Positions 587-39,382 of a DNA stretch of 64,000 nt are shown here, piece by piece; the stretch's first letter is position 1, and every line of letters starts with the position of its first letter. The position numbers and the translations under genes are program-made. The notes beneath the pieces were generated by a model. The model saw nothing but the letters and a program-made list of their open reading frames with translations, did no database searches and was not told the DNA's origin. Origin of the DNA: Geosiphon pyriformis uo1 (lineage: Eukaryota; Fungi; Glomeromycota); contig JAAOMT010000073.1 of NCBI GenBank assembly GCA_016748015.1, positions 1 to 64,000 of the forward strand, read 5' to 3'.

Positions 587-2069
587 GCAAAACAACATCA
601 AAACCTTCAAAAAAAGAGACCAAAAACCTCTGGTAACAATGAGAAAAATAGCCTTAAATTCTGAAAAAATTGATAACATAATACCATAAATTTTAATCCT
701 AATGCTGAAATTAATATTTGAAAACAAAGCAGTAGCTCTTTTAACAACCATAGTTAAACCAAAATGTTTTATGAACTTATTCATATAAATATTAAACAAA
801 CATAAACCAAACTCTAATAAAATGTTTTTAGCATAACCAATTGAATTAGCCACTATGAAATCAGGAAAGTATTTATTAAAAAATTAAAACAAAGTGCCAG
901 CTATAGCCAATTTGTTGTTCAGAAATCAAGTAGCTAAGTTAAATCATATAAGAACAAGACTCTGTAAATCTAAATACTTCCAATATCTAAAAATTTTCAG
1001 TTAAAACAATATTCTTTTTTGTTTAGTAATTGTTCTATAAAAGCAATACCAAAGCATTTCAGAAAACAGGCCACTCTAAAAAATTTTTCACTTCCAAGAA
1101 TTTCAAACATTGGTGTTCTATTAGAAAATTAAAAAGCATTTGACAAAACATTAAAAAAAATAAGCCATAAAATAAAAAATTTTCACAATTTCAGCCAAAA
1201 AATTATTCATAGAAATAATATTTAATTTAATAGAATAGTATAATAGATGTATTAACAACCAGTTAATAATTTGCAAATCTATATACTAATAGATAAAAAG
1301 TTGTCTTAAAACATTAGATACATTTGTAAAACTTAAAACAACTGATAATTTACTTTTAGTCTGTACTTGGCCAAAAGTTTTTATGCCATAAAAAAATAAA
1401 TATAGCAATGTGTTTATAAAAAAATTACATGAAAGATTTGTTTTGAGTTTTAGATTTTTTTTGATTATAGCATTCTATTTAATGCAAATACTTTCAGAAA
1501 TATAATTAAATTGTGTTTTGTAACTAATGATAGACTATAGAACCAAAAAAACCAAATAACAAAATTGTTTATCAGAAATAGTTTTATACAAAACTATATT
1601 TAAAAAAAATCAAACATCTAATTAAGCTTTAACTAAACTAGACTTTAACAGCTTATCTGTTAACAAAAATATATCCAAATACTAATAAGATTCACTTTTT
1701 TTAGCAATTGTAATTGATAAGCCACTAATAAGCAAGAAAAATTTTCTGACTTTTTGATTGATAAGAATAGCAATTATTTTATCATTGTTTATAAAAATAT
1801 TATTAATTATAAAGAATTCACTAATTTTGTTCAGAATGTATTATGTTGTTGTTTGATTATTACCAACTCAAATTGTGTTATTTACAAAAGTTTCAACAGC
1901 AAAATAAGTGATTATTTCAGCTTAAGCTTTTACTTTGTTAGATTTTGCCACAAATTTTGAATCAATTCTATATTCACATAAATAATCAATCCTTTTAATT
2001 TCACACAGAAGGTGATTATAAAAAATTTTCCAAAAAAACAAAAAAAAACTTTATTTTAATTGAGTTTAT

Positions 2070-3104
2070 TGTTATCTAAGTAGAAAAACCAATTCAAGTT
2101 ATAAAAAAATGTGATCAAAAATGTAATAATACAAAATAATGTAAAAGAACACAGAATAATATGTAATAACTCAAGATAATATAATACAAAACAAAATTTA
2201 ATAATGTAATATAGCACAAAATAATGAGGATAATTAGTAATATCATAGAAAAATAAAGCAATAACAAAAATAGCAAACAATAATTAACAATAACAAAACA
2301 ATTAAAAACAATCTTATAGAACTAAAAAAAATATATAAAAAAAAGTAGTTATAGAAGATAAAAAGACAAACAAATAGACAAGAATTAACTTTCTTCTACT
2401 TATATTTATTATATATCTCTTATTATATCTTATATTTTATATTACTGAAATAAAAAAAATATTAACAAAACTTGAAATCCCTATTTGTATAATTCTTATA
2501 CTTCATATATTGTAACTAAATTACTCTTGTTTTTATCTTTGTTTCTGGTTAGATGCTCTTAGCATAAATAGCCTTAAATTATTATGACTTGGACTAATTA
2601 TTTTTAATAATGGCAATTGATAATACTAATTTATTTTCTTTTACTTTTTTTTATTTTTTTTTATTTTTTTATTTTTATTTTTATTTTTATTTTTATTTTT
2701 ATTATCTCTTATGGAATAACAATATAAGAAAATTGACTATCTGAAAATAGACTTCATAATAGCTTGGTAAAAAAAAAAGTCTTTTTTAGAATTAAATATT
2801 AATATTATCTTGTAAGCTTATCAGAAAGATGAAAAGACACTGCTGGACTTTAGCAACTGTGTTCAACTAGTTTGAAAAAAATAGTTTATATATAAAAAGT
2901 TGTAATATTATGAAACTATTTCTCTGTGTTTTATAACCAAAAAACTTTATAAATAAATTCACATTAATTAAAAAAATCTTTAGAGACTGATAATACTAAT
3001 ATACTAAACAAGCTTATTGGAAAAAAACTATCAAAAACTTCCTAGAAACCCAAATTTTGAGCACCAAATATTATTATCATATACTACCAAGTTTATTTAT
3101 AACA
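2070..3104 (+). mobile_element. Degenerate solo LTR
   Basis: Termini TGTTAT...ATAACA; flanks TTAT/CTAT (a 4-bp TSD differing by one transition); interrupts the LINE RT D-G-L-D-Q-G motif; contains a U3 repeat array, TATA, a T tract and GAGCACCAA (3059-3067). Confidence 0.7.
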
Positions 3105-5843
3105 CTATTTAGTATCTTATAATTATTTAAAAAACCAAAATCTGTTATTATTTTGTTGGTTTTATTTAAATAAATACTTCCAAAAAACTTAATAAATCTA
3201 ACACACATTTTAATTTATTTTAAACTAGCTTTTAAGTGATATTATCTAACTGAATTATATGTTTTACACATATTTTAAAGAATTAGCCAAAGCTCTCAAT
3301 TTTTTTTTAAAGTATTTTTAACTATTAAGCAGATAACAAAAATAGAAGATTGAGTTGTAGTATTTTTTAAAACTAAAAAATTGTTATCTCAGAAAATGTT
3401 GAATTTGCTACAAACTAATAAAATACAATCTGATAAAATTTTAGACAAAATTTTTTTCACTGTTTCAATCAAAACAATAGACTGTGTATTTATAAGTATT
3501 CTATTTCATTCATAAAATTTGGGGATTATTGAAACCTAGTTATTTTTTTAAAGAGCTGAAACATTATTACAAACCAAACAAAAGTTCAATAGATCCAAAA
3601 GACATTTTAATACTAAGTTATTACAATGTTTCTAAAGTTTATTCATGCTAATTTTTTTTATTACATTAGAAAAAAAATTGTCTTCTACATATTCTAAAAA
3701 TACATATTAATAAGACTATGATTCTGGTATTGTTTTATATATTTTTTACTCTCTTATTCAATTTATCATGATTTTATTTATTTTAAGCTTTATATTATTT
3801 GGTTCTAAAACTAAGTTATCTTTAATAACCAAATGGTCAAGTACCACTTTATGGAAAGATTATTCTAAAACACTTTTTATTATACTTTTTTTATTTAAAC
3901 TAAAACTTTTTATATACTTTTCAATTGCTTTTTTGATAGATTTGTCCTTAACCAATTCTGTTTTACTGTACTAGGATTTTTGATAATGTTTTTTGACTAC
4001 TACTAAGTATTTAAGAATCTCCATAAAACTAGCACCTTTACTAATTAAACTGGTAAACTTAAAAGCTTGTATGCTATTAAAAACTAATCAGATCTTAATA
4101 AAACAAGTAAAATTCGAGCTGTTGTCTAAAGTTAAAGTCTTAACCAACTTAGCAACTAATATTTTAAGCTTGTAGAACTTAAAAGTTTGTCTATTTTTTG
4201 AACAATTGAAAACATTAAACCAATGTTTAAAGAAAATCAAATCTGCCAAATTGACTATTATTATTTTCAATAACTCCTATATAGAATCTAAATTATTAAG
4301 TCTTTTTGTACTTATAAATTCATCTAAATATATTAACATTTTGGCAGAAAAACATTTCTTAAAATGAATTCACTTGGCTGTATCTGAATTCTTAATTTTA
4401 AACTTTCAGTGGTTTTTGTTAACTTGCTTTTGGATTGTATTTAGGCATTTATTCAAAAAATCACACAAACTAAAAAAAACAGAGACAGCCATATAATCTG
4501 TTTTAAAAAAATTTGACATATTGTTAACACTTTTATCTATTACAGCCATTAAAAAATGTTTACTAACAAAAACAAAATCATAATTTTTCTTACTTTCTTT
4601 AAATTATTTTATGTTGAGAGTTTAATAAAAGACTATCTAAAAAGAAATTATATAGACCCAAATTCAAATATTTTCCATAACTATCATTCTGTCTTATCTT
4701 ATTTTTATTGAAATCTCCACTTAATACTACATAAAAACTCGAATTGACAGTTTTGGCAATATAAAAGTTTATTTTGTATGCTTGACTAAATCTTATATTA
4801 GCTAAAACACCAGCATATAAGCCCAAAATTTTTACTTAAACTTTATTGGCAAAAAAAATGGATAGAAATAAGACATTCAAAAATCTCAAAAACTTTATAC
4901 ATATGTTTGGCAAGATTATTATATATTATTATTACTACTTCTAAATTCAGATAATCTACATCTAATCCAAAAACAAAAACTTTTAAACCTGAAAATCTGT
5001 TTTTGATTTAAGGTCTAGTCTGCTTTTTTAACTTTGTTTTTGTATTAATAAAAACCAAATTATCTGAATTTTTATGCTACTTAATAACATCATTTTGTTT
5101 AGCTAAATTGTTTATTCTTCTAATATTACAGATTGCAAATTTCCAAACAAAACTGGTTATTGATATAAAAAAAGTGCTTTAGAGTCTAAGCCAGTATACA
5201 ACTGATCTAATTTATTTAAAACCAAATTGACAGATACTTCAAAAACAAATATCTTAAATTCTAGACTTTTAATTTTGATGGTTAATACTTTAGAACTGCT
5301 TAAATTTAAAACTGAAATCTCAGTTATTACCAATAAAGGAAAGAAAAATAAAATCTGTAAATTATTTAATACTATATTAGAGTTTGTAAAAAGAGATACC
5401 AATAAGAAAATATTTGTAGTCAGATTTAAAACCAAACTCAAATTTGAAACTGAAAAGTCTATCAAAATAAGAGAGGGAAGAACAGACACAGAGAACACCA
5501 AATCTATTTTATTCAGCTTGCATAAAATTATTGATATCTAATCTGCTAACAGTTTTAAAGAGCATTTTAAGAAAGTTAGCTGATTATTAAAAACAAGTAT
5601 GTCTTAAAAGATAAAAAAAACACTGCCAAAATAAAAGCTACCAGAAAAAGAGGATTTGAAGAAAAAATCAGAACAAATGCTAATAAAATCAATTATTGAA
5701 GAAATTACCTGTATCCAAAATTTGCCATTAAAAACAACAAAATAGGTAATAAAATTTTTTTTTTGTGTATAAATAGACCAGCTAAAGACAATTTTTATCT
5801 GATATAATCTTTTTATAATTTTTTTTAAGATAGAAACTGATGG

Positions 5844-6666
5844 TGTTACTCATAAAAAGAAAACAGATATAGAAAAATAGTAGGCCAATAAGAAAGTAGT
5901 AGTTAACACATAAGCACATTGCTCAACAATATAGAGCAATATCAGAAATCATAGCACATTGCTCAGCAATGTGGAGCAATGTTAAGAAAATATAGCACAT
6001 TGCTAAGCAATATGAACATTGCTTGAGAAATTATAGAATATTGCTCAAGAATATGAGCAATCTCATAGAACCTAAATTATGTATATATAGTGGTAGCATT
6101 AAAAGTAGAAAAGACAGATCTCTCAGTTTAGATTTTATCTAAACAACCTTTCCATTCACAAATATCAATAAATAATTATTTTTTATTTTAAATTCACTCC
6201 CACTATCAACACTTTATGTTGATAGTAATTGATACTTAACCACACTGGAACAATAGCTCTTGATCATGGCTATTGATGGAATACTAACTTGCAATTGCTT
6301 TTGTTTAAATTTTGTTTATTTTTTTTTATTTTCTTTGTTTTATTAAAATTGATTAAGGATTAAGTGCTGAGATACAAACATCATAGGACTGGTAAAAGAT
6401 CCATGAAACAAGAGTAGAACACTTATAGATTTGAGAATAGCTTACCAGAAGGATTACCGGCCATCACACTGAAAAAGAAATTTGATGAAATTGTGATTTT
6501 GGGAGGCTACTGAAAACAATTGTTAAATCTCTGTCTATTATACAAACAACTCTACAACAAACCTTCAGATCAATAAAACCTTCAGATATCTATGCCAGAA
6601 TACCACTCAAGCACCAAGTTATGGATTTGTTATTTGCTTTGAGACCCCAAATAATCATTTGTAACA
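5844..6666 (+). repeat. 5' LTR of element 1
   Basis: Direct repeat of 14960-15782; TG...CA termini; TATATATA and AATAAA present. Confidence 0.97.
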
Positions 6667-6668
6667 TT

Positions 6669-6685
6669 TGGTGCTCCCTGTGAGG
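6669..6685 (+). other. Primer-binding site TGGTGCTCCCTGTGAGG (complementary to a tRNA 3' end, probably elongator Met or Ile-UAU)
   Basis: Starts with TGG 2 nt after the LTR; identical in element 2 (62501-62517, minus strand). Confidence 0.85.
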
Positions 6686-6689
6686 TATA

Positions 6690-9600
6690 ATCCTACAGAG
6701 AACCAGCACCAACAACCCCATCTAAACAGTAGCAAAATCTGAAGAAATAGAAACAAACCACTTGGAATTTGCGAAATTTTTATTCCAACACTATCATACT
6801 CATCTTGGATTAACAAATAATAGTTGGCCAACAGAATCAGCTTTCAATTGCTACATCAATGAGAGAATTGTATACCATTTAGGAGGCCAAGGAGATTCAG
6901 AATCCGCCTTCAACAACTTCTTTAGTGAATTGCTCCAAAGCACCACCTTTCCACAAAACTACCTATTTGTATCCCTAATTACAAAAATAAACAGGGAAAT
7001 TGAAAAATACACCAAACAGAAATTTTCTATCACTTTTGCCAACAAAGAGAAAAGAAGGTTACAAACACCAGCAGAAACACCAAAGCAAATTCAACTACTT
7101 ACTTGGAAAAAACAAAGATTTGATTTATCTGCTAATCTATCATATTATCATACATCCGGAAGCACTATCAATATAATAAGCATAGCTACAGCAAGCATGA
7201 CAATGCTGCTAAACAAAATCTCATTCCAAAGTAAACAAAAAAAAGCAGAGTTATTAGGAACATATAGTGATTTTTTCAAGGGATTTAAATCACAATCCCC
7301 AATGCTATCAGAAATTTGATCACCACCACCACAACCAGATTTCAGAGCCATTAGTCCTTGAGAAATAAATGACTCTAAAGAAGAAGAGAGTAGTGATCAG
7401 GAAGTTAACAAGCAAAACCTGATCCTAGAAAATTCAAAAATTAAAACTCCAGTTAATCAAACTCCAGAAAATCAGAATAATTAAAACTTCGACATAATTA
7501 ACCAATACTTACCTTCAGTAATTGTGATCAAACCACCACCAGCTCCACTAATTGCTGAACAGCAACAACAGTCACAACCACTACTCTAACAACAAATCCA
7601 GCAGCAACCACAACAACAACCAATGGCTTATGCTCCAATCACTAAAATAGAAAAATTTACTGGCAAAGAAGATGATATCCAAGTATGGCTTAATGATGTA
7701 GAAAAAGCCATCACAGCTAATGGGTGGAACAATGCCAGAGCTTTTCAAGCAATTCCCTATTTTCTACAGGATACTGCTGACTTGTGGTATCAGAGTTTAG
7801 CTGTTAAATTTCAAACATTCCAGGAATTTAAAACTGCATTCTTGGGATATTTCAGTAATAATAACAGCATTAATCACCTGGCCAATGCTTTTACTACAAT
7901 TAAACAGGGAGAAACTAAAGCAGTTACTACTTACTTAGGACACTTTCACAAGAACTTGCACCAAATTCAAGCAATTTAGGCTGATTATTTTACAGTACCA
8001 CAGATTCTAAACCAGTTCATCCATGGACTGTACAGTAGCCTTCTACAATACATATGCCCAATGCACCCACAAACTTTCCAAAATGCAGTTACTAATATGA
8101 AAGATTTTGAATTGGCAAAACTTGAAGCAAACCATGTTCAAGTTATTAACCTAGTCATGAATAGATTATCTGACTTGGACTTCAAATTAAAACAACTTAG
8201 TGAATTAATTAATCAGAAATTGGAAGGATACTTAGCTAACAATCATGCAATTTATTAACTACCACAATGACACAATAATCCAGGAAACACAAATCATTTC
8301 CAAAATCAGTCGTATCCATTGTCAAATCAGCTGTGGCAACAAAAAACGCATGTTTGTCATAACTGTAGTAAATAAGGCCATATTAGAGCTAACTGCCAAT
8401 TTTATAATAATAACTCACAATCAGAAAATCAATATTAAAACTCTGATTGCCAGTTTCAAGCTCCGAATTATCAACCCAACCTAGCATCATATCAACTGAA
8501 TTACTTACCTATAACACAACAGCCAATCTATTAACCACCAATTTATTAGCCAATTAACTCTGCCATTTATTAACTGCAGTCTCAACCTATTTATTAGTTG
8601 TAGCTTTAGGTAATTTATCAGTCCCAACCAATTCAAACACTGCCACAAAACTTATCTTAAAACAGAACTTAAAGGCTAAGACTAACACAACAAAGCTGGA
8701 GATCATCAATGGTAGTTTATTAACTAATCTCCAGTTTCTTAACACAACAATTGGGATCCTGACAATGGAATTCGGGCACTGGGTATGCCCAAAATCCAAA
8801 TTTCCAACACTATTTAAGTCTTCTGGTTATCCCAAAAGACACCACATCCAACAACCTGGAATCTAGCCAGAAACAGTCACTTACTAACAATATTCCACCA
8901 GCAACCATCTCCTATGACAAATCTTTAGCAGTTATTTTTCTTTTTGAACTCGAAGAAACCACAACAGTCTCATTATTCAATAGAGCTGCTCTTGACACCA
9001 AACTGATCACTGTTATATACATTGATGCAAAGGTTGATGGTCATACCATTAAGCTGATACTAGATAGTGGATTAGCTAGTAGCATCATTACATGACAACT
9101 CATGGACTAATTAGGTCACCAAGTTGATCATGCTGTTAGCATTCGCATAATCACTGCTGAGGGGCAATTAAAACCTCTATTGATGAAATTGATGACCTCT
9201 CTTTTGAAATTAATAACATTATTATTCCCATCAAAGTCTTAGTAATAGAAGCAACTTAATATCAGGCATTGGTAGAAAATGACTGGTTATCTAAACCAAT
9301 ACTGTACTTGACTAGATGATGCAAGAACTCCAACTCAGCCAGAATGGTTGACACACATAAGTACCAGCCATGTGTGGCCATTTCAAAACCCTCAACATGC
9401 CAGCACCTCTTATCAAATTTGAGGAAAAAGAGAAGAAACCTATCTGAGAAGCCTATCAAGTGTCCTAGGTCAACAAAGACCACAATGAGTTGCTGCTGAT
9501 ACTCTCCTGGGATGACAACAACAAAAAAAAACAGAAGGAAGAACTTATCTGGAATACAGACCAAGCCTGGGAAACCAATAATAACCAAGACAACTTATCA

Positions 9601-12600
9601 ACTTGGGAGTAGAAAGAGACTGACAAAGAAAAAGGAAAAGAAAAAGAAACAACACCTATCAGCACTACTTATAATTATTACACCTACATTACACCCCAAC
9701 GATCTGCCTATTATTGACCAAAACTCATATGCATCAATTGCAGTAAGAAATTGTTGTCAATAAATGCATGTTGTGGTGATGATGAGAAATATCAAATGGC
9801 AACCAAGTTTTACTGTCATCCATGTGTCATAGAATGCTTTGGATGACCAAAATGGCAAGGAAAATGGGACAATAAACCATGTTTTGTCTGTAGAACTATT
9901 TTACTTAATGAAGAAATGTGAAATAACATTCCTGGGCATAGAGGAATATACAATGAGATGTGTCAGTATACAATCTTAATCAACAACTGGGTACTCAAGG
10001 GAACACTAATTGACAACGCTTGGAAAAGAACATTATAATAATTGGAAGGATATTCCCATGACAAACATGAACTCTGGAGAATGGCATACATGAAAGCAGA
10101 AGGCATGACAACCAGCGAACTACTGGAAATCAAAAACAATCCTCTATCTCTTCCTAAACCTAAATACGTCCAAACTTTTGACATCTTTGGCAACATTGAA
10201 GACAACTCAGAAGAATTCCATGAACATTACCAGTAATTAGTGCCCACAAAGAAAGAGTAAGAGCAATACTTAGAGCAGCTGAACACTCAACTGTGTCAAT
10301 ATTGTCTAATTCCATGTGACTTCCAATATTGTAATAAGTGTGACCTTATTTACAATCTACCATTATGCATAATCTACACAATCCCAAAAGAAGAAGAACC
10401 AATCAGCAGCTGCACATCAGAATTGGAATCAACTTTCAATCCTGATTCAAACTCCAACAACAATGATAACAAAAACAACAGTTCCAGCTTCGCTCAATAT
10501 GGCAACAAAAATAACAATGATTTGGAATCCAATTCAAATCCTGAAGCATATATTACACTTCTTGATCTCACCAAGGAACAAGAACTGAAATAGTTCAGCG
10601 ATAATAATGAAGATATTATGCCTGAACACGTGCATGATACTGATGCAGGATTTGATCTAAGATATCCAAGGAAAGATCCCATTAAATTGGAACCACATTC
10701 GTACATTTGTATCAATCTGAAAATAACACTAGAAATTCTAGCAACAACAATAGTTTAACTAGCATTCAGAAGTAGTTTAGCGAAAAAAAAAATCAACATC
10801 AGAGGAGGAATAATTGATGCAGGATATGTAGGAAATATCATTGCTATGCTACAAAATGACTCAGAAAAGACCTATATTATAGAGCCAAATAAAAAGATAG
10901 CACAGACAATATTCTTGCCTCTGGTGAAAATAGCTCAGTTAGTATTAATGGGAAACAGGAAAGAGTTAGGGATTACTGCTAAAGGAATACAGAGATTTGG
11001 ATCAATAGATAAAATAGACATACCAGTTAATATAGTAGAGAAAGAGGTTATTGACAAAGGAGAAATTATCTCAACCCATTAATCAATTTCTATTCTACCA
11101 TATGACCAGTATATGTTAGCCCTAAAAAGAGAAGTAAAGAATCAAGCTTAGTTGTTTGAAGCAGAAGCCACCATTTGTGAATTAGAAGAGATTGGACTCA
11201 CTAATCTCTACATATTAGTCAAAAGCCTCAAAAATATCAAAATTTCCATCTACAACACAATGGGAAGTGTTATTGAAATACCAAAAAAAATTATTATTGG
11301 ATATTTAACCACTGAAGTTGAGGATCAACCACCAAACCACATTCCAGATTTTCTACAGCTTTGTAGATATGTGAATATTACATCACAAACCATTTATGGA
11401 CAAAGCAAATGTTATCTGCTCCAACTGAAACAATTGGAACAAATGAATTTGGGAAATTTAGACCCACTTTAACAAATACAACTTAAGATATTACTCAACA
11501 ATTTCAATAACATCTTTGCCAGTGAAAATAAATTTGGCAGAACTAACATAATCTAGCACCAGATTAAGACTGAAGATGAAATGCCAATAAAACAAAGAGC
11601 ATATAGAATACCACCAGCTAGTCATGAAATCATTTGTCAAGAAATTAATCAAATGTTTGACAATAGACTAATTCAGCCATCAATAAGCCCATGGTTATTA
11701 CCAGTGGTACTAGTTTGAAAGAAAAATGGAAAGATTCATTTTTGTGTAGACTATTGAAAACTGAATGGAGTAACTAAAAGTGATAGTTATCTAATTCCAA
11801 AGATCCAAAAACTATTTGATGCTTTTGGAGGAAATAAATGGTTCTTGACACTGGACTTAGATAGTGGTTACTGACAAGTAGCCATGCATCCAGCCAACAA
11901 AAAAAAAACAGCATTTACCACCAGAGAAAAAAATTTTGAGTTTGAAGTCATGCCATTTGGCTTGATGAATGCTCCAGCAACATTCCAATGGCTTATGAAG
12001 ATTGTCTATACTGGATTACTGTGAAAATCAGTAGTTGTTTACTTAAACAACACCAATGTGTTTTCCAAAACATTTGATGATTATCTACATCATCTTTAAC
12101 AAGTATTTGAAAGATTGAGAAGAGTGGAATTAAAGCTAAATGCCACTAAATGCTTTTTTGAAAAAACTGAACTCAAATTTTTGGGACATATTGTAAGCAA
12201 AAACAGTATCAAAACAGATCCAAATAAGATAGAGACTGTTAAAAACTTTTTAGTACCAAATAATCCCACAGAATTGAGAGCATTCTTGGGATTTGCTGGA
12301 TACTACCGCCACTTTATCAAAGACTTTTCCAAAATAGCTCAACCACTGCACTAGTTTCAAACAAAGAATGCCAAGTATAAATAGACAGAAACCCAGCAAG
12401 AAGCTTTTGATAAATTAAGAAGAAAGTTCATTCAAGTTCCAGTATTAATCTATTCAGATTATAACAAGCCATTTATTATCACTACCAATCCATTAGATCA
12501 AACATTGAGAGCAGTACTATCACAAAAAAAACCAGATGGAAGAGAACATCCAGTAACTTATGCCAGTAGAAGCTTAAGTCCAGCTGAAAAAAACTATGAA

Positions 12601-12843
12601 ACACCAGCATTAGAACACTTAGCAATTTATTGGGCAGTCATGAAATAGAAAGAATACTTAAGCCAAAAGTTTGAAATATATATGGATCACAAAGAATTAA
12701 CTTTAATCCAGAAACAAGAATTTGGAAATGACTGTCATGTCAGATAAAAAATAGAACTTTCACTATTCAATTATACAATACATTATAAAAAAGGAAAAGA
12801 CAATGGAAATGCCAACAGTTTATTACAAATGAGACAAATCTAA
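6690..12843 (+). pseudogene. gag-pol polyprotein pseudogene: Gag with CCHC knuckle, aspartic protease, Cys-rich region, dUTPase, RT, RNase H
   Basis: MAYAPITKIEKFTG capsid start (7623); CHNCSK*GHIRANC; LILDSG protease (~9055); DAGFDL, GGIIDAGYVG and QRFGS dUTPase motifs (10.63-11.02 kb); RT YLNNT (mutated YLDD); RH ending NANSLLQMRQI*. Essentially one frame with many TAA/TAG/TGA transition stops. Confidence 0.92.
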
Positions 12844-12874
12844 AAACCACTTCAACCCAAAAATATAACAAAAG

Positions 12875-14257
12875 ATAAATATACAAAAATACCAACAACT
12901 TCAACATTATATAAATACCTAATTGTTCAAGAAGAAATTATCTCAAAAAGAACAAAACAACATAAAACAACAATCAAAATATTTTATCAATCATCAAAAT
13001 ATACTGTACCGAAAAAATAGAAGAAATTCAGACCAGCCAACAAGAGTAATTACAGAACCAGAAAAAGAGACAATATTGTTCAATATGTACTCAGATCCAA
13101 CAGCAGGACATTTTTATAAAGAAGCAACCATGGAAAAAACTAGAAGAAAATACTATTGGCCATCAATATATTCAGATATTATTCAATATGTTCAAAATTG
13201 TGATGCTTGTTAGAAAAGAAGAGGAACAAAACCCAGTGAATTATTGAGACCAATTAAAATGAGACAACCATTTGATTGAATTGGAATTAACTTAGTTGGA
13301 CTATTAACAATTACCAATAGAGGCAACAAATATATTGCAATAGCCATGGATTATCTCACTAAATGGCCAGAAACAAAAGCCATTCAAAGAGCAGATGCAG
13401 AATTCATTGCCAAATTCATTTATCAAGATCTGATCTGTCAACATGGATGTTCAAAAGAATTATTATTAGATCAAGAAACTCACTTTGTAAACAAAATATT
13501 AGCAGAATTAAGCCAAAGATTTGGAATAAAAAGACTACTATCATTACTATACCATCCACAAACAAATGAGTTAGTTGAAAGATTCAATAGAATACTGTGT
13601 AAAGCAATAGCCAAAATTAGCCAAGAAAACCAGGACAAATGGAATTCATTTATACCATCAGTATTACTTACTTATCAGACAATGAAGCAAGATACTATAC
13701 AAACAACACCATTTGAATTGGTATACAGTAGAACTGCAACATTACCAGTTGAAATAGAGGTCAATACATATCCAACTAAACCAATAACAGAAGATAATTT
13801 CTAAGAAACATTGTTGAGAAGAACATATGACTTAATAAAAACACTAGAAAACAGATGACAAAAAGCAGCTGATAACATCCAAAAGTCACAAGAAAAGCAA
13901 AAAGAAAGACATGATAAACAACTACCAAATAAACCAGTTGAATTCAAGATTGGAGACAAAGTACTTTTACATTATACCAAAGCAGAAAAACAATAGAGTG
14001 GAAAATTCGACCTCAAATGGAATGGACCATTTCATATAGAAAAAATTCTAGGAAATAGAGCTTATAAATTAAAATGGGACAACAAAATCTTAACCAAAGC
14101 AGCACATGGTAATCGACTGAAACCATATCACCATACAGTATCAATATCCACCAGTAATATTTCACAATTAGGAGTACAAAAAATACTAGTTCAATCAGAT
14201 GAGATTCTACAAGATCTAGAACCAATCATAGTTATTAAACCAAACACATTAAATTGA
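12875..14257 (+). pseudogene. Integrase pseudogene in a separate ORF (HHCC, DDE core, GPY/F-type C-terminus, no chromodomain)
   Basis: AGH...YYWP...CDAC, MDYLTKWPE, YHPQTNELVERFN, WNGPF. Out of frame with RT-RH after a 31-nt spacer; 1383 nt, the same length as the element 2 copy. Confidence 0.9.
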
Positions 14258-14310
14258 ACAACCAAAAGTATATAAAAACACAGTACACACAACAAAAGCA
14301 ACCAAGAAAA

Positions 14311-14946
14311 ATGAAAATACCAGATCATATTCACACTATAGCTTAACAATTGTTCCAAGCCTTAAGTCAACAACAATTAGACATGGAAATTATTATTAAC
14401 AACCAGATAATTTGTTATCAAAACACCCAAAGAAAGATGAAAAATACACCATATCAGCGGCCACCAAAGAATAATAAAAACTGAACAAATAACTTAATAG
14501 AAAAAATGAAGAACACTTTTAGAAAAATACCTATTATGGCACCAACAGAAAAGTTTACAAAAGAAAATTGAAAGCAATGAATAGAACAACTTCCAATATC
14601 ATATTGCTATTACCAGTTAGGTCAAAAGTTGAATATTCAGGAGTTGTATATCAACAAATCTAAGAAAATATTCAACCAAGACATAATACAGCAAATTGAA
14701 GAATTTATCAGAAAGAAAACAAACTTAATACTATATGTTAAAACAATGTACCAATTATACAACATATTTCAGAACTATCCAAAAATACTATTACACTCTA
14801 ACATGGAAACCATAACCATTAACCAATGGGGAAGAATAAACAATACACAGATAGAAAATGTGAGAAACAAAGTCGAACAAACAATACTTGAAAAAAAAGT
14901 ACTAGAATTAATTCAAAATGAAGATTTCAATAGAGCTCAATATTAA
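14311..14946 (+). pseudogene. Extra 3' ORF of unknown function (~211 aa) in element 1
   Basis: ATG at 14311 is in frame with the 14629-14946 ORF; homologous in frame to 54093-54722; the stop abuts the PPT. Confidence 0.8.
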
Positions 14947-14959
14947 AAGGAGGAGATAA
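14945..14959 (+). other. Polypurine tract
   Basis: AAAAGGAGGAGATAA immediately before the 3' LTR. Confidence 0.85.
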
Positions 14960-15782
14960 TGTTACTCATAAAAAGAAAACAGATATAAAAAAATAGTAGG
15001 CCAATAAGAAAGTAGTAGTTAGCACATAAGCACATTGTTCAGCAATATGGAGCAATGTCAAAAATCACAGCACATCACTCAGCAATGTGGAGCAATGTCA
15101 AGAAAATATAGCACATTACTAAGCAATGTGAGCATTGCTTGAGAAATTATAGCACATTGCTTGATAATGTGACCAATCTCATAGAACCCAAATTATGTAT
15201 ATATAGTGGTAGTATTAGAAGTAAAAAAGACAGACCTCTTAGTTTAGATTTTATCTAAGTGACTTTCCCATCCACAAATATCAATAAATAATTATTTTCT
15301 ATTTTAAATTCACTCCTACTATCAATACTTTATGTTAATAGTAATTGATACTTAACCACACTGGAACAATAGCTCTTGATCATGGCTATTAACAGGATAC
15401 TAACTTGCAATTGCTTTTGTTTAAATTTTGTTTATTTTTTTTTATTTTTTTTGTTTTATTAAAATTGATTAAGGATTAAGCGCTGAGATACAGACATCAT
15501 AGAACTGGTAAAAGATCCGTAAAACAAGGGTAAAACACTCATAGATTTGAGAATAGCTTACCAGGAGAATTATCAGCCACTATGTTGAGAAAGAAATTTG
15601 ATGGAATTGCAATTCCAAGAGACTACTGAAAACAATTGTTAAATCTTTGTCTATTATATAAAACACTCTACAACAAATCTTCAGATCAATAAAATCTTTA
15701 GATATCTATGCCAGAGTACCACTCAAGCACCAAGTTATGGATTTGTTATTTGCTTTGAGACCCCAAATAATTATCTGTAGCA
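14960..15782 (+). repeat. 3' LTR of element 1
   Basis: Direct repeat of 5844-6666. Confidence 0.97.
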
Positions 15783-17910
15783 ATGGGCCTGAAAAATTAC
15801 ATTTAAAAAATAAATAACCAAACTGCCCATATTTTTCACAATAAACCAGATCTATTTTAGTCCAAAAAAACTTAATACTGCTCAGAATAAACTCTGTATG
15901 AAAAGCTAACTCCAATTTTTTTTTGATTTAAAGCCAATTATTGCATAGTGAATCTTATTGTCAATTTTAAATAATTGATTTATGATATAAGTTTTTCTAT
16001 TAGTTCTATCTAATAAAATACCAAAATTATAAGCAGTTGTTTTTACTAGCAAAATAAACAAAAATGACTTAAACCAATTTCTTAAAATCTAAATATTATG
16101 ATCTTTTATAGCTTTGACTATGCATACTGAATTTTTTCTAATTAAAAATAACCACTTTGCTACCAATTGATCTGTTTAAGCTAATTTGGCAAATTCTATT
16201 ACAGTTTTTTGTTACAGTCTAATTAATTATAAGCAGATTGATATTACTTGACCAAACTTAAAAAGAGCTGTGACAATTATTTTTTTTGGTATATTTATAA
16301 AAATTTTCTTAATAACTATGGCCTAATTTGAACAAATTTTTTGTCTCTTAACATTATTGTTTATGATGATTTTTTTTCTGGCCAATAATATAGTCTTTTC
16401 TATGCTCTTTTTTGATATAAATATTAATTAGATAATTTTTTTTAAATTTTAAAAGAATGATAGTCTCTTCAAAACCATGAATTATTGAAAAAATTTTCTT
16501 GAAAAATTAAGTTTTTTTCATTGCTAATTTGTTTTTAACTGCCAAAAAATTAATGTTTAAGACAAAAAACTTTTTAACAAATATTTTTACTTAAATCTTG
16601 ATTATTTTAAGATTAATTCATTTTTTGTCCAGAAAAATAGATAAGTAGAAAGGGAAAAAAACCTCATTATCATCTATGTTAAAGTTAAAAGAGCCAATTA
16701 TGAAATTAAAGGCAGCATTAATATTAATTTGCTTAGTCTTGAAAGTATTTGTTTTAGAATCTAACTGCTTTTTTTCTTTATTATTTGTTTTATAACCAGT
16801 ATTATCATCCAAAAAAACCACTTTAGAAGTATTTTTATTTGTGTTTATTTTAGCAAACTGACTAACAACATGTCTTAAACCAGCAAAACTTAAGTCTGTT
16901 TTATTATTTAAGTATTTTATTTTGTCAAAAGAAGCTTTTTACTTCTGTGTTAAGCTTTTACTAACTAAACCAAAAGCTAAAATTTGGGCTGGTCTTCTCT
17001 TACCTACAGAATTACTCATGGTAGCAGTTAATTTAACAACAAAAAAGTTTGTTTTTTGGAAAATTATGAAATATAAAAACAAAAAAAAACAAAAAACTTT
17101 TTTTACAAAAATTATTCTTTAAAGAATTATGGACATAAAAGATAAAGAAGTTTTAGTTTTTTTTAAGTTTTTATTATATTAAGCAAAAATATTTAATATT
17201 AAGTCTTAAAATAAATTTTGTAATTTGTAAATAATTTTAATTAAAAATTATTTGTTTAAAGTTATTAAGCTTAATTAAAAACCAATTAAAAAAAATATTA
17301 AATTTATTTAATTTATGTTTTTATTTTTTTATTTTATAAATACTATTTATTATAATATAATTACAAAAAATTTTAAAATAAATATAATTTATGTTTTTAT
17401 ATATATAACTAGCTATTTGAATTAATTAAGATTATATTAAATATTTACAAATTTAAAAACACTTAAATTAAATATGATTTATGCACTTTTTATATATAAC
17501 CAATTACTTAAATTAATTAAAACACAAATTAAACTAAATTAAAAAAAGCCAAAAGTAAATTTAATTTACTAAATTTATTTATAAAACTATTTAAATCTTA
17601 ATTATTAAAAACAAATTTACTTAATAATAATCTGGTTTTTTTAATATTATATTTGATATTAAAACTATTTATATATTACAATATTACCAAATATTTAATA
17701 ATTAAATTATTTAAAAAAAATGGTTTAATATTACTTAATTTATTTTTATTTATGATATTAAATTTTATTTTATTTTTTTTATTTTTTTATATATATATTT
17801 AATGAGTGAAGTCCAAATACTAAATAAAATACATCATTATATAATCTAAACTAAGCACGAATCATGCTTTTACTACACGCAACCAGCCATTCAGACCAGT
17901 CAGAACAATA

Positions 17911-20900
17911 CTAAACACTTATAAGAACAAAAACTACATCATTAACACCTGAGAAAAACAAACAGGACTTACAAAACCCAAAACTGATGCCAAATGCATC
18001 CTTGATATCCAACAACCTAACTACACTATCTGAGAGCCACTCAGATAAACCAGAAATAAAGATGGGAATAGAGCCATCACAAGGAATTAGCCCACACTTT
18101 TCCATAAAAGCTTGGTGTTTTGCATAGACCAATCAGATATTCTCCCAAAAAATGAGACAAAGCCCATGCACAAAGTCCACAATCCTTTCACACCCAACCT
18201 TAAAATCACCAAAAACCAAAACAAACTCATGACACCAACTACTAAACACAAAGCCCTTATACAAAGCCATGCCAACTCCAACCTTTGAAACACAAGAAGC
18301 CAGTAACTGCAAAACACATGAAGAAGAGCGAGACAAACCAGAAAGAGCCTTCCAAGCCAAAGCATAAGCATTCAGCAACTGAGCATGACTGGTGGCATCA
18401 TGAAGACAAGAAAAAACATGGTCCAAGACCTTGACATTACCACAGAACAAACACACCACACTGGGGTAACTCTTATTATATAAATGCTTGTGCACAGCAA
18501 CAGGCAATTGCTAATGGAAGGCTTTCATAAAATATGACTAATAGCTAGCCGTTTGCACAGTAGTGAAGCCAGCAGCCAAGTGAGAATCAAGATGCCACAC
18601 CATAGAGAACCTGGACCAGTTGATATTAGCATGCAAACTATCTACCACAATTCAAGAACCAGACTCAGCCTCTCAGCGAGCACAATGAATACCATAAAAA
18701 ACATCATAAACAAAGTGCCTAGAATTCCCAGAAACCGCAGTACCATTAGCACTCAGAAAACGTTCATTGATTAAATGAGGCAAATGCCAGACAGAGAAAG
18801 CAGCATCTTTGACAAGCACATTAGCACATTTATTGTCTGAAACACCAGAATAGCCCCTAACCTTAAACCAATTTACATTCAAATTTTTACGACTAATTAC
18901 ATTAGCAATGTGGCGACATTTGATCCAACAATGGTTTCTGAAATCAGGATAAACCAGCAAAGATTCAGATTTGCATGCATCTAAAGCAGCTTGGCTGTCC
19001 AAAAATAAGTCAACTACACAAAAAGGAGGAATACACTCAAGAGCCAAAGCAATAGCCTGCAATTCTACCAGAATAGAAAAAACCAAACCAGACACCCCTA
19101 CACCCAAACCTGCATTAATGTCTTCAAAGAAAGCAGCAGCACCTGCCTTTATGCCAACAGTATCCAGACCACTTAAAGAACCATCTGTATATACAGAGAG
19201 GTGAGCCACATCAGCATCCAACAGCTTGTTATATACAACACCAAAACCATGAGATTGACAAACATCAGAACCAGCATGAACATTCTCAAAGGAGAAACAA
19301 ACAGAAAAAGAACCAACATTGCCAAGAAAGCGAACAGATAGATCAAACCAGAAAGGGATTGGGCCACAAAAATCCAGCCTCTTCCAATGTTTAAAGGTGC
19401 TCCAGCTGAAAACACCACCAGTGCAGTCACGCAGTTGGTTCACAAAAGCAATTTCATAATGCCTAAGTGAAGACACACATCTGACAAAACAAGGTTCACC
19501 AAGAACCTGACATATGGGCATACCATTCTGGATGCAAAAAGCACTAGCCAGAGAGCCACCCAAAGACAGATCACAATCAGAAAAAATACAAACTACACCT
19601 GCCAAAAAATTATTTGAGGGGCTGACACCAACACAAGCCGGAAACAGCAAAGGATAACAAGGATGCCAGCTGAGGACCTGGAGATTATGAGACTTGTAAG
19701 AAAACAAATGACCCAAAATACCAACCAAATTCGTGAAAGCAACAACAGAGGCTGATTTACTCTCAACCTGCACTTGTTCAAAAGACTTTAAATTATACAA
19801 TGAAGAATGTTAAAGCACATCATTGGGGAAATCATGGGGCAGTCCAGACTTTGATTTCAAGACCTTGTGCAGCAGAGCATCTTATTTATTACAAACACCA
19901 ACTGGAATAAAGCTGAATTGAGTCCTGTAACTGACGATGGGAAAAAGAACTGCAGACACCAAATACACAAACTGTTTGTCAAAAACTGCTTTCTTTAAAA
20001 CCAGGTTCACAAAAAAATGGACATCTGACTGAGCTTTAGCCAGACTAGGCTTTGAAAGACCCTCAGAAGACAAAAAAATACCCAGGTAATGATGAGGTTC
20101 TCCCTTCTTGGTAACAGAAATAGGTGAACTACTGACAGTCAAATGAGACATAACAACCCAGCAGTTGATAGGAATGACAACAGTCTTATCATTATTAATC
20201 AAAATGTCATTTAACTTAAAGAATTTACTGGCAACATTGAGGATATGCTGTGTGGCAGCCTGGCTGCTACTGACCCAAATTGTATCATCAACAAAAACAC
20301 CAGCAGCCAGAAATGACATTAGCTCAGCTTAAGATTCTACCCAGCCAGTTTTGGAAATAAAATGCAAATTTAATCTGTAACCACACATGCTTTTCTGCCT
20401 TTTAACCTCACACAAAAGTAAATCATAAAATATGTGCCAAAGAAGTGGCGAAAAAACCTCCCCTTGGTCCAAACCATCATAAACTTGGTAATCATTAGTC
20501 AAGCCAAAATCAGTTATCACTCGGTTATAATAATTATTGTGAATGCTACCAAAAAATCAAACAAACTTGTCACACATCTTGATCCTAACCAAACTTCTTC
20601 TAAGATGTTCCCAACCAACAGAATTGTACACCTTATGTATATCCTGTAAAACCAGCCACAGCTTCCAGTTTTTTTCCAAAGCATCCTCGATTACAGAACC
20701 AATGGTAAAAATAGGTGATTGTGTGGTTGTGTTTTTTAGCACAAAAAAATTGTCTCTGTGGAGAACATCAAATACACTACAAGCTGAAGATATCCTGTCC
20801 GAAAGTATCTTAGAAAGTACTTTGCAAGCTGTTTTGATCAAAGCAATAGGATGCGTATTTGTAAGAACCCCCTCCTATTCATATGGTTTTGGAATCATTG

Positions 20901-22598
20901 AGATCTAAGCTTCCCTTCAAGGCCCAGACACTAACTCACTAACCAAGCAAAAGTTCAAAAGCACTAAAAGCATATCTAAAACCAATTTATCACAATGCTT
21001 CCACAATTCATTCGAGATGCCAGAGAGACCTGCTGCTTTCTCATTAGGCAAACCCAAGACCACATCAAACATTTCATCAAAACCAATAGGACTCATCATG
21101 TTAAAAAAGTCATCATCAAAAACATAATTTAAAGACTAAAATTGGGAAACCCAATCATCAAAGATATCAGTTACTATCACACGCTTCCTGGTCCAACTCT
21201 TCATAATTTCATCCACCTTAGATTTAACCAAATCAGGCTCTAGCACCAGCTTATTATCCACAACCAGATAATCCAACACCACCTTATAGAAAGAATGTTC
21301 TAGCACACTTCTGATAGTACGACTCTTGTCTAACTCAAAGCTCTCCATTCTTTTATTAATGGCCTGCTTGATACAGAAATCTTCAGCACATTTGAATTCT
21401 ACCAATTTGGATGAATGGTAAAATTTCTTTGCCTTTACCAGAGCAGAGCAAATAACATCAAAATTAGAACCTGAAAGAAAGAGAGACCTTACTGTTGATG
21501 CACCAGCAGAGTCAAAAACACACCATATATCCAAAAGCAATACAAAATTGACATCAGAAATCAAATGAGATGCCTTCACCAGCTTGGAAACCAGCAGTTC
21601 CAGCTTATGAAACCAAGAAAAAACTTTGGTGTACACACTATCAAAACCCTTAAACCATTTTTTTTTGAAAGCCCCATCTGCCGAAAGAACCATAATCTTT
21701 TGAACAATGCTCCACATCACATCCAGATCAGAAAATCTCCTGGCTGAAGAAAACTCATTCAAGAACATGGCAGTATTGGCCACTGTAAACATCTTAAATT
21801 CACGTCATTTAACATCATTTGCAGATTTGACATCAAATTTCCAATGATCCTTATTCACCTGTTTGTGCAGCAAATTCAATTAAACATTGAGCAAACCACC
21901 AACACCCACAGAGACAGAAACAGCCTTGTGATCAATATCAAAATAATCCACAACATCATCTATACCATGATCCACCATAGCATTAACAAGATTTGAGGAA
22001 ACAAACACATAGTCAATTGTCTTAGCAACACCACAAGAATTACACCAGATGGGTGTCTTTGCAAAAAGGCTCCCACCCAAAGAATTCATCAAACCTAAAT
22101 CAAAACATTTCCTGAAGCTAGTACTCTTGTGAAATCCATCTTCGTTGAAATTGCCACCTAAGATAACGAAAGAAGATTCATTTACAGCCCTTGCAATTCA
22201 AGAATTAACATCGTCTACCTGAAAAAAACGTACTGCCAAAGACACTCTAGTGTACAGACCCAAGATTGATACAAATAATTTATTTTTGAAGAGCAACTTA
22301 ATAGAAAAAAGTCTGCCAGGAATCTCTGAGACCTTACTTACATGCCGAGCTAAAGAATTGTCCATAATAATTGCCACACTAGCACCCAAATGACCAGCAT
22401 CCAAACCCAAAGTGAAACCCAAACCCCATCAAATTTGTTCATGATTTAAGGACAGATCTTACCTTTCAGCTTAGTTTCAGTAACAATAGAAACCAAATTG
22501 CCCATTTCTAAATGCCAACAAACAATGTCATTCTGCTTTGCAGAATTGTTCATGCCCCGAACATTACACATCACAATTTTCTAGACAAAACTACTCAT
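17911..22598 (-). pseudogene. LINE B ORF2: apurinic endonuclease, reverse transcriptase, RNase H, C-terminal Cys/His motif
   Basis: CNVRG/ETKL/GGNFN/IDYVF/DHKAV (APE); GLDQGEVFSPLLW and FVDD (RT); VYTDGS, ELQAI, DSQ, WFKVRGYSG (RNase H); CLFCG...DHVFSC. Interrupted by stops. Confidence 0.92.
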
Positions 22599-24394
22599 TG
22601 AAAAAGAAGTAAGGAGGAAGTATTGCCAGTCAAAACCAAACCATCAAAGCAAGCAGTCAAACTAAAAATGGATTTAGAAAGGCCTTCCAACATGTTCTCT
22701 AACTTGATAATGTGGGGGGATACCAAAAAATCCAAAGTCATAGTAGTCTTGCCACTAATGGCCTTATTTGAGCCCACTCTTATCACTATATCCTCTCCTT
22801 GATTTTGTGATGGGAGGGTCACCGGTGGCTGACATCCAGGGCTAGGTTAAGGAACTGCCAGCACAAATAAATTCAACTTCTTAGCCAATTCACCAATCTG
22901 TTTCACAAGGCTGACGAGACTGCTCTCAATGCTAATCAAACATTTTTCCAAATCATCTACAGCAAAAGGGAGCAGTACATCATTTTTTATGGAACCAAGT
23001 TGAGAATCATAACCAAAAAAATCATTCGAAGAAGAAGAACCAACCACTAACACCCAGGTCTTACCACCAAAAGCCAACAGACAGGAGATAGGTGCTGACT
23101 TCTTTTCATAAATTTTAGCCAATCTAAACCAATCTTGAGCTGAGAGAAGGGCTCTTTTGCTCTTAGGATTAGAAGACACACCTGCCAACTTACAAACTGA
23201 AATTGAGTGACCAAAAGAATTGCAACCAGAGCACAAAGGGATAACCAGACATGACTAGTAGAGACCAATGCTTTTTATTACTGGTGTATTGGCCACTGCC
23301 TGAGTTATGTTATCTTCAAAAACAAAACACACAGTGGCACAGTGTGCACGAGTATAATTGACAGAATTGCAGTCGATGATGCATGTTTTCCCACCAATGG
23401 AACCAAGAAAATCCCACAGATTATGTGTATTGGTTCTCACAGGGAGAGTGTAAAGCAAAGCCTTAAACCTGTCTCTAAAGTTCCATGTTTGTTTGTCAAC
23501 ATCAGTCTTGGCCACATATACTGCATCTTTCCCAATGAAGATAGACCATTTGGATGCCAAGAGATCAGCCTGAATTTGATTTCCCAAAATGATAATTGCC
23601 TTTTGCCACAAACCCACCAATTGCATTTTGATCAACTCAATTACTTCAAATTCGGAAACAGCCACACACACTGCCTCAATAGATGTTCCCACAGGAATTT
23701 TCCTAATCACAACTGACTGATTTGTGTGAATGTTGCCAAGGTGCTTAAGATTAGTGTTTATCACAACACTATGATTATGAGCCAATTTTCCCGCAGTCAT
23801 CATCGCCGATTCAGAAGTGAATGTAGCTCGAATGATTCTACCAAATTTTGAGGAAGTAAAAGCCCCCCCAAAATCATTCACACCTAAAAAAATTTTTCTG
23901 ATAAAACTCAATTTTTTCTGAGAAAACTTCCTAGCAATGGCCACAAGATTAATATCTAAAGCAAAGAATTTGTGAACAGACACCTGAACGGATGGCTTGA
24001 TAAGAAGAGGGGGTGGAAGAAGAAAGAAATCATTCAACACATCATTTTTTGCATTGACAGTATTATAATTAATTACACTCAGTGGCTTTCTTAATACTTT
24101 CTTGATTTTTACACACAAACTTTTTGGTGTATGATCAGAATCTCCTTTCATGAAAGTACCACTTTCACCATAGTCAACACTGGTTTCTTCAACCAAGCAC
24201 TTTTTCTCCATGTCAATACTCTTAGACTCTATAGTGTCACCAGTCTCAGAACCTCATGAACAAGCACCAGAAGCTTTAGCAGCAACCCTTTTATTATCAA
24301 TACTCTTTTCCAATATATCTTCCTTCCTTTTCTTCCTTGATGCAACAGCCTTGAAACCATCTTCAGAACCAAAATCTTTAATAGTCTTCTTTAT
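22595..24394 (-). pseudogene. LINE B ORF1 (gag-like nucleic-acid chaperone with CCHC knuckle)
   Basis: In-frame ORF fragments 23255-24211, 22847-23236 (CSGCNSFGHSISVC) and 22595-22822; the start is approximate (ATA at 24394, probably a mutated ATG). Confidence 0.85.
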
Positions 24395-24539
24395 AACAGC
24401 AATAACAAGACCAACAATGGCCTCAAAATCAAAAAACGGTTTGGTTTTATCGTACTGAATGTTGAAAAAACTTCTTTCAAAAAAAACTTTTGACTCTTTT
24501 TGGGAATTTGGGATGAACGAGAGAAAGAAGTTTTTTTAA

Positions 24540-26250: not shown

Positions 26251-27813
26251 AAAAAACATTTTTATAAAATATTATTAAATAATCTTTATAATTGTTAGTA
26301 CTTTATTGATAAAAAAATTATTAATTGTTTTAAATAATAAAAAAGATAAAAAAAGTGTAATTTTTTTAATTGATTTTTAATTTTTTAAGTTTAATTTTTT
26401 ATTTATTTATTTAATAGATAATAATATAATTTTAAATACTATTAATTATTATAAAACATAATATATTCTTTATAAAGTTGAATTTTTATTTGTTTTAATT
26501 ATTAAATTTAAGTTTTTTTTAAAAAATAAAAATAGTTAAATATATTATAATAAAATTAAATTTTATTAAAATAATTTTACTTAGTAATTTTTAAAATATA
26601 TTTAATATATTTAGCTTTTTTTATCTGCTTAATATTATCTTGAATTTTTTGTTAATAAAAACTATTGTTAATTTATAAATTATTTTAGCATTATAAAAAT
26701 AATAATACTATTATATACTATTTAAAATAAAAAATTTTTTTTTTTTAGAAATTGAAAAAACATATTGGCAAACTTAATTGTAAACTTTTTTTGTTATTAA
26801 AATATTATTTAATTATAACAATAAAACCAATTAAAAAATTAAAAATAACAAAAAAAAACTCATTTAAAAACAATAATAATAAATTTAAAGTTTACTATTA
26901 TTATAATTATTAATATTAATAATTGTTTTTTAACCACTTTAATTTTTTAGTTATTTAAAAATAATAATAATAATAACAGATTCAAAATTTTAAGACTTTT
27001 GCTAATAATAATAACAATAATAATATTTTAAACTAATTAAAAATTATTATAAATTTATATTATTTAATTATTTTTATTATTAAAAAAATTTTTGGTTGTT
27101 GTTTTTTAATTACATTAACAAAAATAATTTTTTTTTGTTTTAATTATAAACATAAAATTTAAAAAATTAAAAAACAAAAAGAGTTTTAAATTTAATATTA
27201 AGTTAAGAAAATAATTAAATGTTAATTTATTAGATAAAAACATATGTATATATATAATTTAAATAATTAACATAATAATAAAAATATTTTTACTTTATTT
27301 AAAAAACAAAATCATTATAATATACTATTTATAATTATATAATTGTTATTAAATATTATAATTAAACAACAATTTATTTATAATAAATATATAAATAAAT
27401 ATTATTATTAAAAATATTTTATATATTAATATAATAAAAATAAATTAAGTAATCAAAATAATAAATGCGCCAATAATTTAAAACTAAATTGAAATGGTAG
27501 TTTCAAAATTTATTTAATAAACTACAAAACAAACTTAAAAAATATAAAACAAAAAAGGTTTATTTACATAAATATTATAAAAAAATGTAATGATAAATAA
27601 AAAAAGTCAATAATCAATTCAGTTTTTGTAAAATTCAAAAAAATACTTGATTTGTTTTTATACGTATAATTAAAATAATTTAAGATATAATCAGGCTAAT
27701 TGTAATTGATTATATATAAAGTAAATCAGTTCTTAAAATTTATAATTGACAAAAAAAATTTTAATGTAAATACGTATATCAAATTCACATTGAGTACTCC
27801 CATATTGATCAGA

Positions 27814-29924: not shown

Positions 29925-29958
<34 letters not shown>

Positions 29959-36589: not shown

Positions 36590-36592
36590 ATG

Positions 36593-36633: not shown

Positions 36634-36634
<1 letters not shown>

Positions 36635-39348: not shown

Positions 39349-39382
<34 letters not shown>

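Follow-up and report, generated by a model that had tools for sequence, protein, structure and literature searches.

All-context C-to-T decay of retrotransposons in Geosiphon pyriformis, RIP-like in effect though not canonical RIP

Introduction

How do the two long terminal repeats (LTRs) of a single retrotransposon come to differ by dozens of transitions and by hardly anything else? The question is raised by element 1, a Ty3/gypsy LTR retrotransposon in a contig of the fungus Geosiphon pyriformis uo1 (JAAOMT010000073.1, assembly GCA_016748015.1), of which the first 64,000 nucleotides, here called the window, were analysed. A sequence-only reading of it had proposed hypermutation of the type known from repeat-induced point mutation (RIP), C to T and G to A, acting on repeats of a probable early-diverging fungus. 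The guess about the host was sound, as the phosphoribosyl pyrophosphate (PRPP) synthetase and NELF-A-like genes of the window are 99% matches to named proteins of G. pyriformis, which makes the host a glomeromycete (Glomeromycotina). As to the process, the decay is RIP-like in effect and, by the features examined, is not canonical RIP.

What separates the paired LTRs

Element 1 has what is expected of a Ty3/gypsy element: LTRs, a target duplication, and gag followed by reverse transcriptase (RT), RNase H and integrase. In the first 450 bp its LTRs differ at 41 positions, with three transversions and no indels, where some 40 differences, three transversions and no indels had been counted by eye; over the full 823 bp there are 79 differences, 74 of them transitions and 5 transversions, again with no indel. 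Many changes had been said to lie outside CpG, and 57 of the 74 transitions do so even if C or G is assumed ancestral at each transition site. The LTRs of element 2, a related gypsy element with about 72% identity to element 1, are separated by 67 transitions and a single transversion over 833 aligned bases, in addition to one gap block. Pooled, the two pairs give 141 transitions and 6 transversions (96% transitions; a transition to transversion ratio of 23), and 109 non-CpG transitions among 115 events has P = 6e-6 even under a background ratio of 4. Since insertion, then, each LTR has experienced C>T change at about 10% per non-CpG cytosine, far more at CpG, and almost nothing else.

The changes are private to each LTR and show no strand bias. 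C>T and G>A number 17 and 21 in one element 1 LTR, and 19 and 17 in the other, a balance from which it follows that they arose after insertion, in double-stranded DNA. A runs test for strand clustering gave P = 0.71 for the 5′ LTR (38 events) and P = 0.065 for the 3′ LTR (36 events), though repeated rounds would blur clusters. The Kimura two-parameter distance between the element 1 LTRs is 0.097 and their transversion distance 0.0036 (95% confidence interval 0.0013–0.0079), in line with the earlier warning that ages estimated from LTRs would be inflated.

The reading frames tell of the same decay. Elements 1 and 2 have 1588 collinear codon pairs with 42 in-frame stops, 12 of them common to both. 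That stops in collinear frames derive from transitions had been read by eye, and 24 of the 30 private ones stand opposite a Gln, Arg or Trp codon and are reachable via transitions alone, in a set of codon pairs where one-step routes to a stop number 668 by transversion vs 138 by C>T or G>A. Likewise the RT of element 1 has YLNN (TACTTAAACAAC, 12040-12051) where element 2 has YLDD, as noted earlier.

Assembly error and sample damage were considered and rejected: the substitutions are indel-free, the genes are spared, and most words of element 1 recur in a public DNA sequencing run, X1. This run contains 67% of sampled element 1 31-mers, which argues against consensus error, with the qualification that it may be the window's own source. 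The word search of public sequencing runs yielded this one DNA run, and no RNA run was listed.

Which way did the changes go?

Counts from an LTR pair do not by themselves give direction, and three polarisations were used. The first relied on run X1, with 13353 contigs matched to the element 1 5′ LTR and 40 of 235 variant rows examined. Those rows include 16 sites of transition between the two LTRs, and the family majority is C or G at all but one. Of these 15, 14 are outside CpG, a subset that under-counts CpG because the family majority there has already decayed. For the second, residues were taken that one window element keeps and that at least 85% of 42-80 metagenome relatives share. In the other window element non-CpG C>T or G>A had occurred at 21 of 129 unambiguous sites, the reverse (T>C or A>G) at 1 of 463, and transversion routes had been taken at 2 of 1617. 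Of the conserved residues that have changed, C>T or G>A alone can explain 85 of 123 in elements 1 and 2 vs 245 of 707 in the controls, and 38 of those 85 require a non-CpG event. The third used all 32 variant rows from 1613 contigs over a 136-bp stretch of RT. None of the 8 transversion variants alters an amino acid, each of the 16 non-synonymous variants is a transition, and at one Trp codon about a third of the depth has a stop, so that the pattern holds for the family genome-wide. A three-way polarisation among copies of long interspersed nuclear elements (LINEs) was confounded by deep divergence and was not relied on. The directionality that had been proposed is thus a strong and well-polarised feature: changes in both elements are C>T and G>A, on both strands. 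The repeat spectrum implies an equilibrium GC of about 1-8%, with C>T in roughly 75- to 130-fold excess over other changes.

Are related elements elsewhere in this state? The CpG observed/expected ratio (o/e) of the integrases of 80 metagenome relatives has a median of 0.74. Stops number 59 in their 30438 codons vs 10 in 838 for elements 1 and 2, but these relatives were found via intact motifs.

Sequence context

With both LTR pairs pooled and C/G taken as ancestral, the proportion of sites changed is 32/42 at CpG (0.76), 34/108 at CpC (0.31), 40/213 at CpT (0.19) and 35/214 at CpA (0.16). This rank order fits a CpG layer over a context-loose layer. Decay of methylated CpG has the strongest effect per site and the smaller share of events, 109 of the 141 being supplied by the other three contexts. 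That it would not suffice had been argued beforehand, and C-pyrimidine-pyrimidine sites, of which 37 of 159 have changed, are ones that CpG decay cannot produce. There is no TpCpG selectivity (TCG 10/12, ACG 10/12, GCG 7/9), and neither the excess limited to CpG that goes with methylated-CpG decay only, nor one limited to TpCpG or CpG as in basidiomycetes, was found. A plant-like CHG effect (H being A, C or T) was tested for in the pooled contexts and not seen, the CHG rate of 0.17 being about equal to the 0.21 of CHH.

The preference of RIP for CpA or another single dinucleotide is absent too, CpA being the context least hit. The RIP indices of element 1, TpA/ApT at 0.81 and (CpA+TpG)/(ApC+GpT) at 1.45, are on the non-RIP side of the usual thresholds.

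Gene islands, deserts and age

The adjacent host genes had been described as keeping CpG and clean frames, and they do. Exons rebuild 411 of 412 residues of the PRPP synthetase and 642 of 645 of the NELF-A-like protein, with CpG o/e of 0.92 and 0.79, and CpG o/e is 0.90-0.93 for gene islands vs 0.08-0.25 for elements. Spacers within the islands have 25-33% GC and CpG o/e of about 0.8-0.9; introns have 26-32% GC and CpG o/e of 0.56-1.0; GC at 4-fold sites is 0.31-0.33. By composition, therefore, introns and 4-fold sites do not share the bias, which is what the sequence-only reading had named as the case that would count against it. The deserts, at 10-13% GC, are near the implied equilibrium and host introns are far from it. 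Edges between desert and island are sharp, within about 250 bp (24500-27750, 36950-41600, 44500-45750), which suggests a firm chromatin boundary.

Loss of cytosines goes with age: older insertions have lost more of them than younger ones nested inside, as with element 1, at 32% GC, in a LINE of 21% GC. Where the better-kept LINE copy has C or G, the older LINE has T or A at 217 of 416 sites, in all contexts; the reverse applies at 57 of 646. For a desert relic (40082-40399) compared with the repeat at 314-638, of 37% GC, the figures are 75 of 114 for C/G to T/A and 4 of 202 for the reverse. Of the 15 low-GC segments put through deamination-aware alignment, whose scoring favours C>T matches so that its counts lean that way, 5 exceeded the shuffles by a wide margin (373, 279, 135, 104 and 73 vs at most 32), 2 did so modestly (48 and 42) and 8 were at or near null, so most desert DNA is untraceable to repeats within this window. 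Most hits of a permissive self-BLAST among the 10% GC deserts were low-complexity noise and were dropped, and near-ungapped LINE and LTR hits were kept.

A methylation-coupled mutator?

The explanation that we favour, with moderate confidence, is a methylation-coupled C>T hypermutation of heterochromatic repeats in all contexts, comparable to the Dim2-dependent mutator known from Zymoseptoria. DNMT1 would methylate CpG in silenced repeats, two DIM-2-type enzymes would methylate cytosines outside CpG there, and methylated cytosines would deaminate to thymine, spontaneously or with the aid of an enzyme; DIM-2 would so be the cause of the non-CpG changes. The process would run at a steady pace in vegetative nuclei, with heterochromatin and not the pairing of repeats as its guide, and its outcome would be like that of RIP, i.e., dead copies and AT-rich relics, without the CpA signature.

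Are the enzymes there? All 83 rows with a C5-methyltransferase domain in Dataset S1 of a published survey (PMC9963178), with BLAST-based assignments, were inspected. For G. pyriformis they contain one full DNMT1 (1384), two DIM2 (14231 and 17547) and two short or fused models assigned to DNMT1 (12536 and 12541), and no RID1 or DNMT5 row. Five other listed glomeromycetes have one DIM2 each, and short RID1-assigned proteins occur in Gigaspora. A review table, as far as its accessible text goes, assigns all CpN contexts to DIM-2 (PMC13297926). In Zymoseptoria tritici mutation during mitosis is more than ten times as frequent with Dim2, and C>T makes up >95% of the changes vs about 32% in its absence, according to the accessible portion of PMC8016269. 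The 96% transitions found here are close to this, and the systems have in common that change is confined to repeats, that GC is lowered and that DIM-2 homologues are present. Unlike Geosiphon, where CpG is hottest and CpA weakest, >98% of the Zymoseptoria changes are at CpA, CpG is spared and the cause is experimental, in another phylum; for Geosiphon DIM-2 is a candidate cause.

Several points count against this explanation. Zymoseptoria Dim2 mutates almost only the context that is weakest in the Geosiphon elements. DIM-2 is present in Rhizophagus and Gigaspora, yet RIP signatures went undetected in G. margarita, so DIM-2 alone may not suffice. At non-CpG sites a 5′ T raises the rate (0.28 vs 0.14-0.17, P = 0.009), which the model leaves unexplained. 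One site scored as CpA (5953) is a masked CpG, and the CpA counts are thus upper bounds. Sparing of the genes is judged from composition and intact frames, not from divergence. For 23 near-identical pairs of metagenome relatives the transition to transversion ratio is 4.4 when pooled with a range of 2-27, so that the Geosiphon genome is not singled out by a high ratio alone. Finally, our search of the literature found no methylation data for G. pyriformis.

A much bolder version, which we put forward as doubtful, is of an enzyme-driven defence, independent of RID and outside Dikarya. Duplicated DIM-2 would be an all-context mutator that kills nearly every LTR and LINE copy and grinds them to deserts of 10% GC, escapes CpA-based screens, is maybe shared with soil fungi (L011, L019, L029, L040, L065), and gives the 'old' LTR burst in Archaeosporales an apparent age about 5-10 times its true one.

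Competing explanations

Could it nevertheless be true RIP, in which pairing that senses homology before meiosis directs a RID-like methyltransferase to mutate both copies in bursts, here with loose context? The high proportion of transitions in collinear frames does resemble it, the 3′ LTR runs test is borderline, and the species has protein 12536, with 540 aa and a lone C5-methyltransferase domain weakly assigned to DNMT1 (PMC9963178). To this may be added the RID1-assigned Gigaspora proteins, and the statement in the accessible text of PMC8298701 that the clade of arbuscular mycorrhizal fungi has RID, while the preprint text of the survey has RID-1 as exclusive to Pezizomycotina. We nonetheless consider it unlikely. 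The CpA counts and indices point away from it, the 5′ LTR has no clustering, RID1 is without a G. pyriformis row, and the family reached the very high copy number seen in run X1. RIP needs roughly 80% identity, and relics that are about 60% identical to any copy in the window lost most of their C, with the reservation that closer copies may exist in the genome beyond the window.

It is improbable, in our judgement, that no special mutator is involved, and that ordinary deamination is left without repair where chromatin is compact and untranscribed, with methylated-CpG decay in addition and genes spared by repair and selection. All contexts are affected, the load rises with age, boundaries track gene islands, and no new enzyme would be required. 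However, the gap in repair alone would have to give the whole 75- to 130-fold excess of C>T without a rise in transversions, and two DIM-2 homologues are a more direct cause.

Still less credible is a genome-wide bias toward AT and transitions combined with CpG decay. Some near-identical pairs of the related soil elements do have ratios of 10-27, and host introns are AT-rich, but the high-ratio pairs are coding and their changes mostly synonymous, and the implied equilibrium is far below the GC of introns and 4-fold sites that lie beside the deserts. The exception is a group of gypsy integrases from soil metagenomes (L011, L019, L029, L040, L065, L026 and L035) in which there are stops, non-synonymous transitions are numerous and the rate is about 0.2-0.5 across all contexts. 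This is possibly the same process in another organism, and Geosiphon may therefore not be alone in having it. L062 also groups with these integrases.

Editing by an AID/APOBEC-like deaminase, during reverse transcription or in the chromosome, is very unlikely in spite of the 5′ T preference at non-CpG sites and of TpC being the classic APOBEC3 target, since the C>T/G>A balance of each LTR and the separate changes of the two LTRs exclude single-strand editing before integration, clusters are not evident, CpG is hottest and LINEs are affected too.

The methylation-coupled explanation can also be set beside other known systems. Neurospora-type RIP, which is RID-dependent and premeiotic, likewise fills both strands of repeats with C>T, leaves their dead frames collinear and their relics AT-rich, and spares genes (here by composition); unlike it, Geosiphon shows negative indices and neither a CpA preference nor clear strand clusters, and has no listed RID. 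The TpCpG/CpG hypermutation of basidiomycetes, in the accessible text of PMC3318451 and PMC4352252, also has CpG as top context, a link to methylation of DNMT1/Masc2 type and a place outside Ascomycota; unlike in Geosiphon, non-CpG change is not elevated there, and TpCpG is selected. Rhizophagus irregularis and Gigaspora margarita belong to the same subphylum and have methylated repeats and DNMT1; unlike the present analysis, the accessible text on them (PMC8647823, PMC13443276) scores only CpG methylation, leaves RIP signatures undetected and gives no all-context spectrum. That of PMC8647823 cites RIP signatures as undetected in G. margarita and Mucoromycotina, and that of PMC12543289 confines RIP-like k-mer signatures to Ascomycota. 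The name 'Geosiphon' does not occur in the 12 of its 19 supplementary files that were searched.

The literature searched contains no description of C>T hypermutation in all contexts for Glomeromycotina, though the Geosiphon genome papers, Venice 2020, Clutterbuck 2017 or supplements could include part of it. The last-named author reportedly described CG-deficient repeats in some early fungi, and also TpCpG/CpG hypermutation of basidiomycete transposons.

Other features of the window

Element 2 is inserted in an LTR of a related family (63417-64000 and 52995-53141), which itself interrupts a LINE at 49.7-53 kb, and LINE copies of differing age occupy much of the remaining window. The 4-bp target duplications of both elements fit NCGN or a decayed form of it (ATGG/ATGG; CCGG/CTGG). 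Should insertion require CpG, DNA that has decayed completely would no longer be a target, and the oldest relics could remain at the edges of transposon blocks.

In both gypsy elements a dUTPase lies just upstream of RT (10534-11079 and 57397-58525). A dUTPase protects the pool of nucleotides, and cytosines that deaminate within the DNA would be outside its reach. Both also have extra reading frames 5′ of gag and between integrase and 3′ LTR (6726-7319 and 14300-14950, respectively), for which no convincing Pfam match was obtained. A virus-contig search gave three weak loci only, which were not used. Two further multi-exon island genes, seen by eye and without a search hit, we take to be twinfilin-like (32400-33910, +) and universal-stress-protein-like (31771-32064, -).

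Table 1. Positions of features in the 64,000-nucleotide window
Feature	Position	Strand	Remarks
Element 1 (Ty3/gypsy LTR retrotransposon)	5844-15782	+	LTRs, target duplication, Pfam domains
Element 1 5′ LTR	5844-6666	+	823 bp, TG...CA
Element 1 3′ LTR	14960-15782	+	823 bp
Element 1 target-site duplication	5840-5843, again at 15783-15786	+	ATGG
Putative primer-binding-site-like sequence	6669-6685	+	TGGTGCTCC...; directly inside element 1 5′ LTR; identical in element 2
gag	7590-8480	+	Stop-interrupted; Pfam Retrotrans_gag
dUTPase region	10534-11079	+	Stop-interrupted; Pfam dUTPase over 10759-11079
RT and RNase H	11473-12831	+	Single frame, with stops
Integrase	12875-14128	+	6 stops in 418 codons; CpG o/e 0.11
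Element 2	53203-63357	-	Nested in third LTR
Element 2 LTRs	about 62520-63357 and 53203-54079	-	
Element 2 flanks	63358-63361 / 53199-53202		CCGG / CTGG
Older LINE relic	1021-5815, resumes 15813-17763	-	Element 1 inserted in its ORF1
LINE	18050-24500	-	Endonuclease, RT and RNase H pieces; 38% GC, CpG o/e 0.18
AT desert	24520-27700		10% GC, 3 CpG; adjoins gene island; similar at 37000-41500, 44520-45750
Gene island	27750-36950		34% GC, CpG o/e 0.90
NELF-A-like gene	28025-30883	+	GC at 4-fold sites 0.31, introns 32% GC
Relic of repeat 314-638	40082-40399	-	Inside 9-10% GC desert; deamination-aware alignment
Gene island with PRPP synthetase (42404-44288)	41750-44500	-	GC at 4-fold sites 0.33, introns 26% GC, CpG o/e 0.92-1.0
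Heavily decayed LTR related to element 1	45770-46611	+	About 17% GC

Significance

What does this mean for the fungus and its relatives? The accessible text of PMC11952901 gives G. pyriformis an LTR content of 41.2%, with RIP and CpG unmentioned there, and reports LTR expansion in Geosiphonaceae and Ambisporaceae and that 61% of G. pyriformis gene models overlap transposons. The decay may explain many of these overlaps. Two annotated 'hypothetical proteins' of the species, P0032 and P0037, contain decayed integrase pieces, so some of its gene models are likely transposon relics. With a background transition to transversion ratio of 2-4, LTR ages would be inflated about 5-9-fold, which bears on the expansion in both families.

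More generally, decay of RIP strength occurs in Glomeromycotina, in a context that CpA-based indices miss. The two DIM-2 homologues are testable enzymes, and bear on whether a methyltransferase could mutate repeats without RID or sex. The likely effect on the elements is that copies are disabled and made to look several times older.

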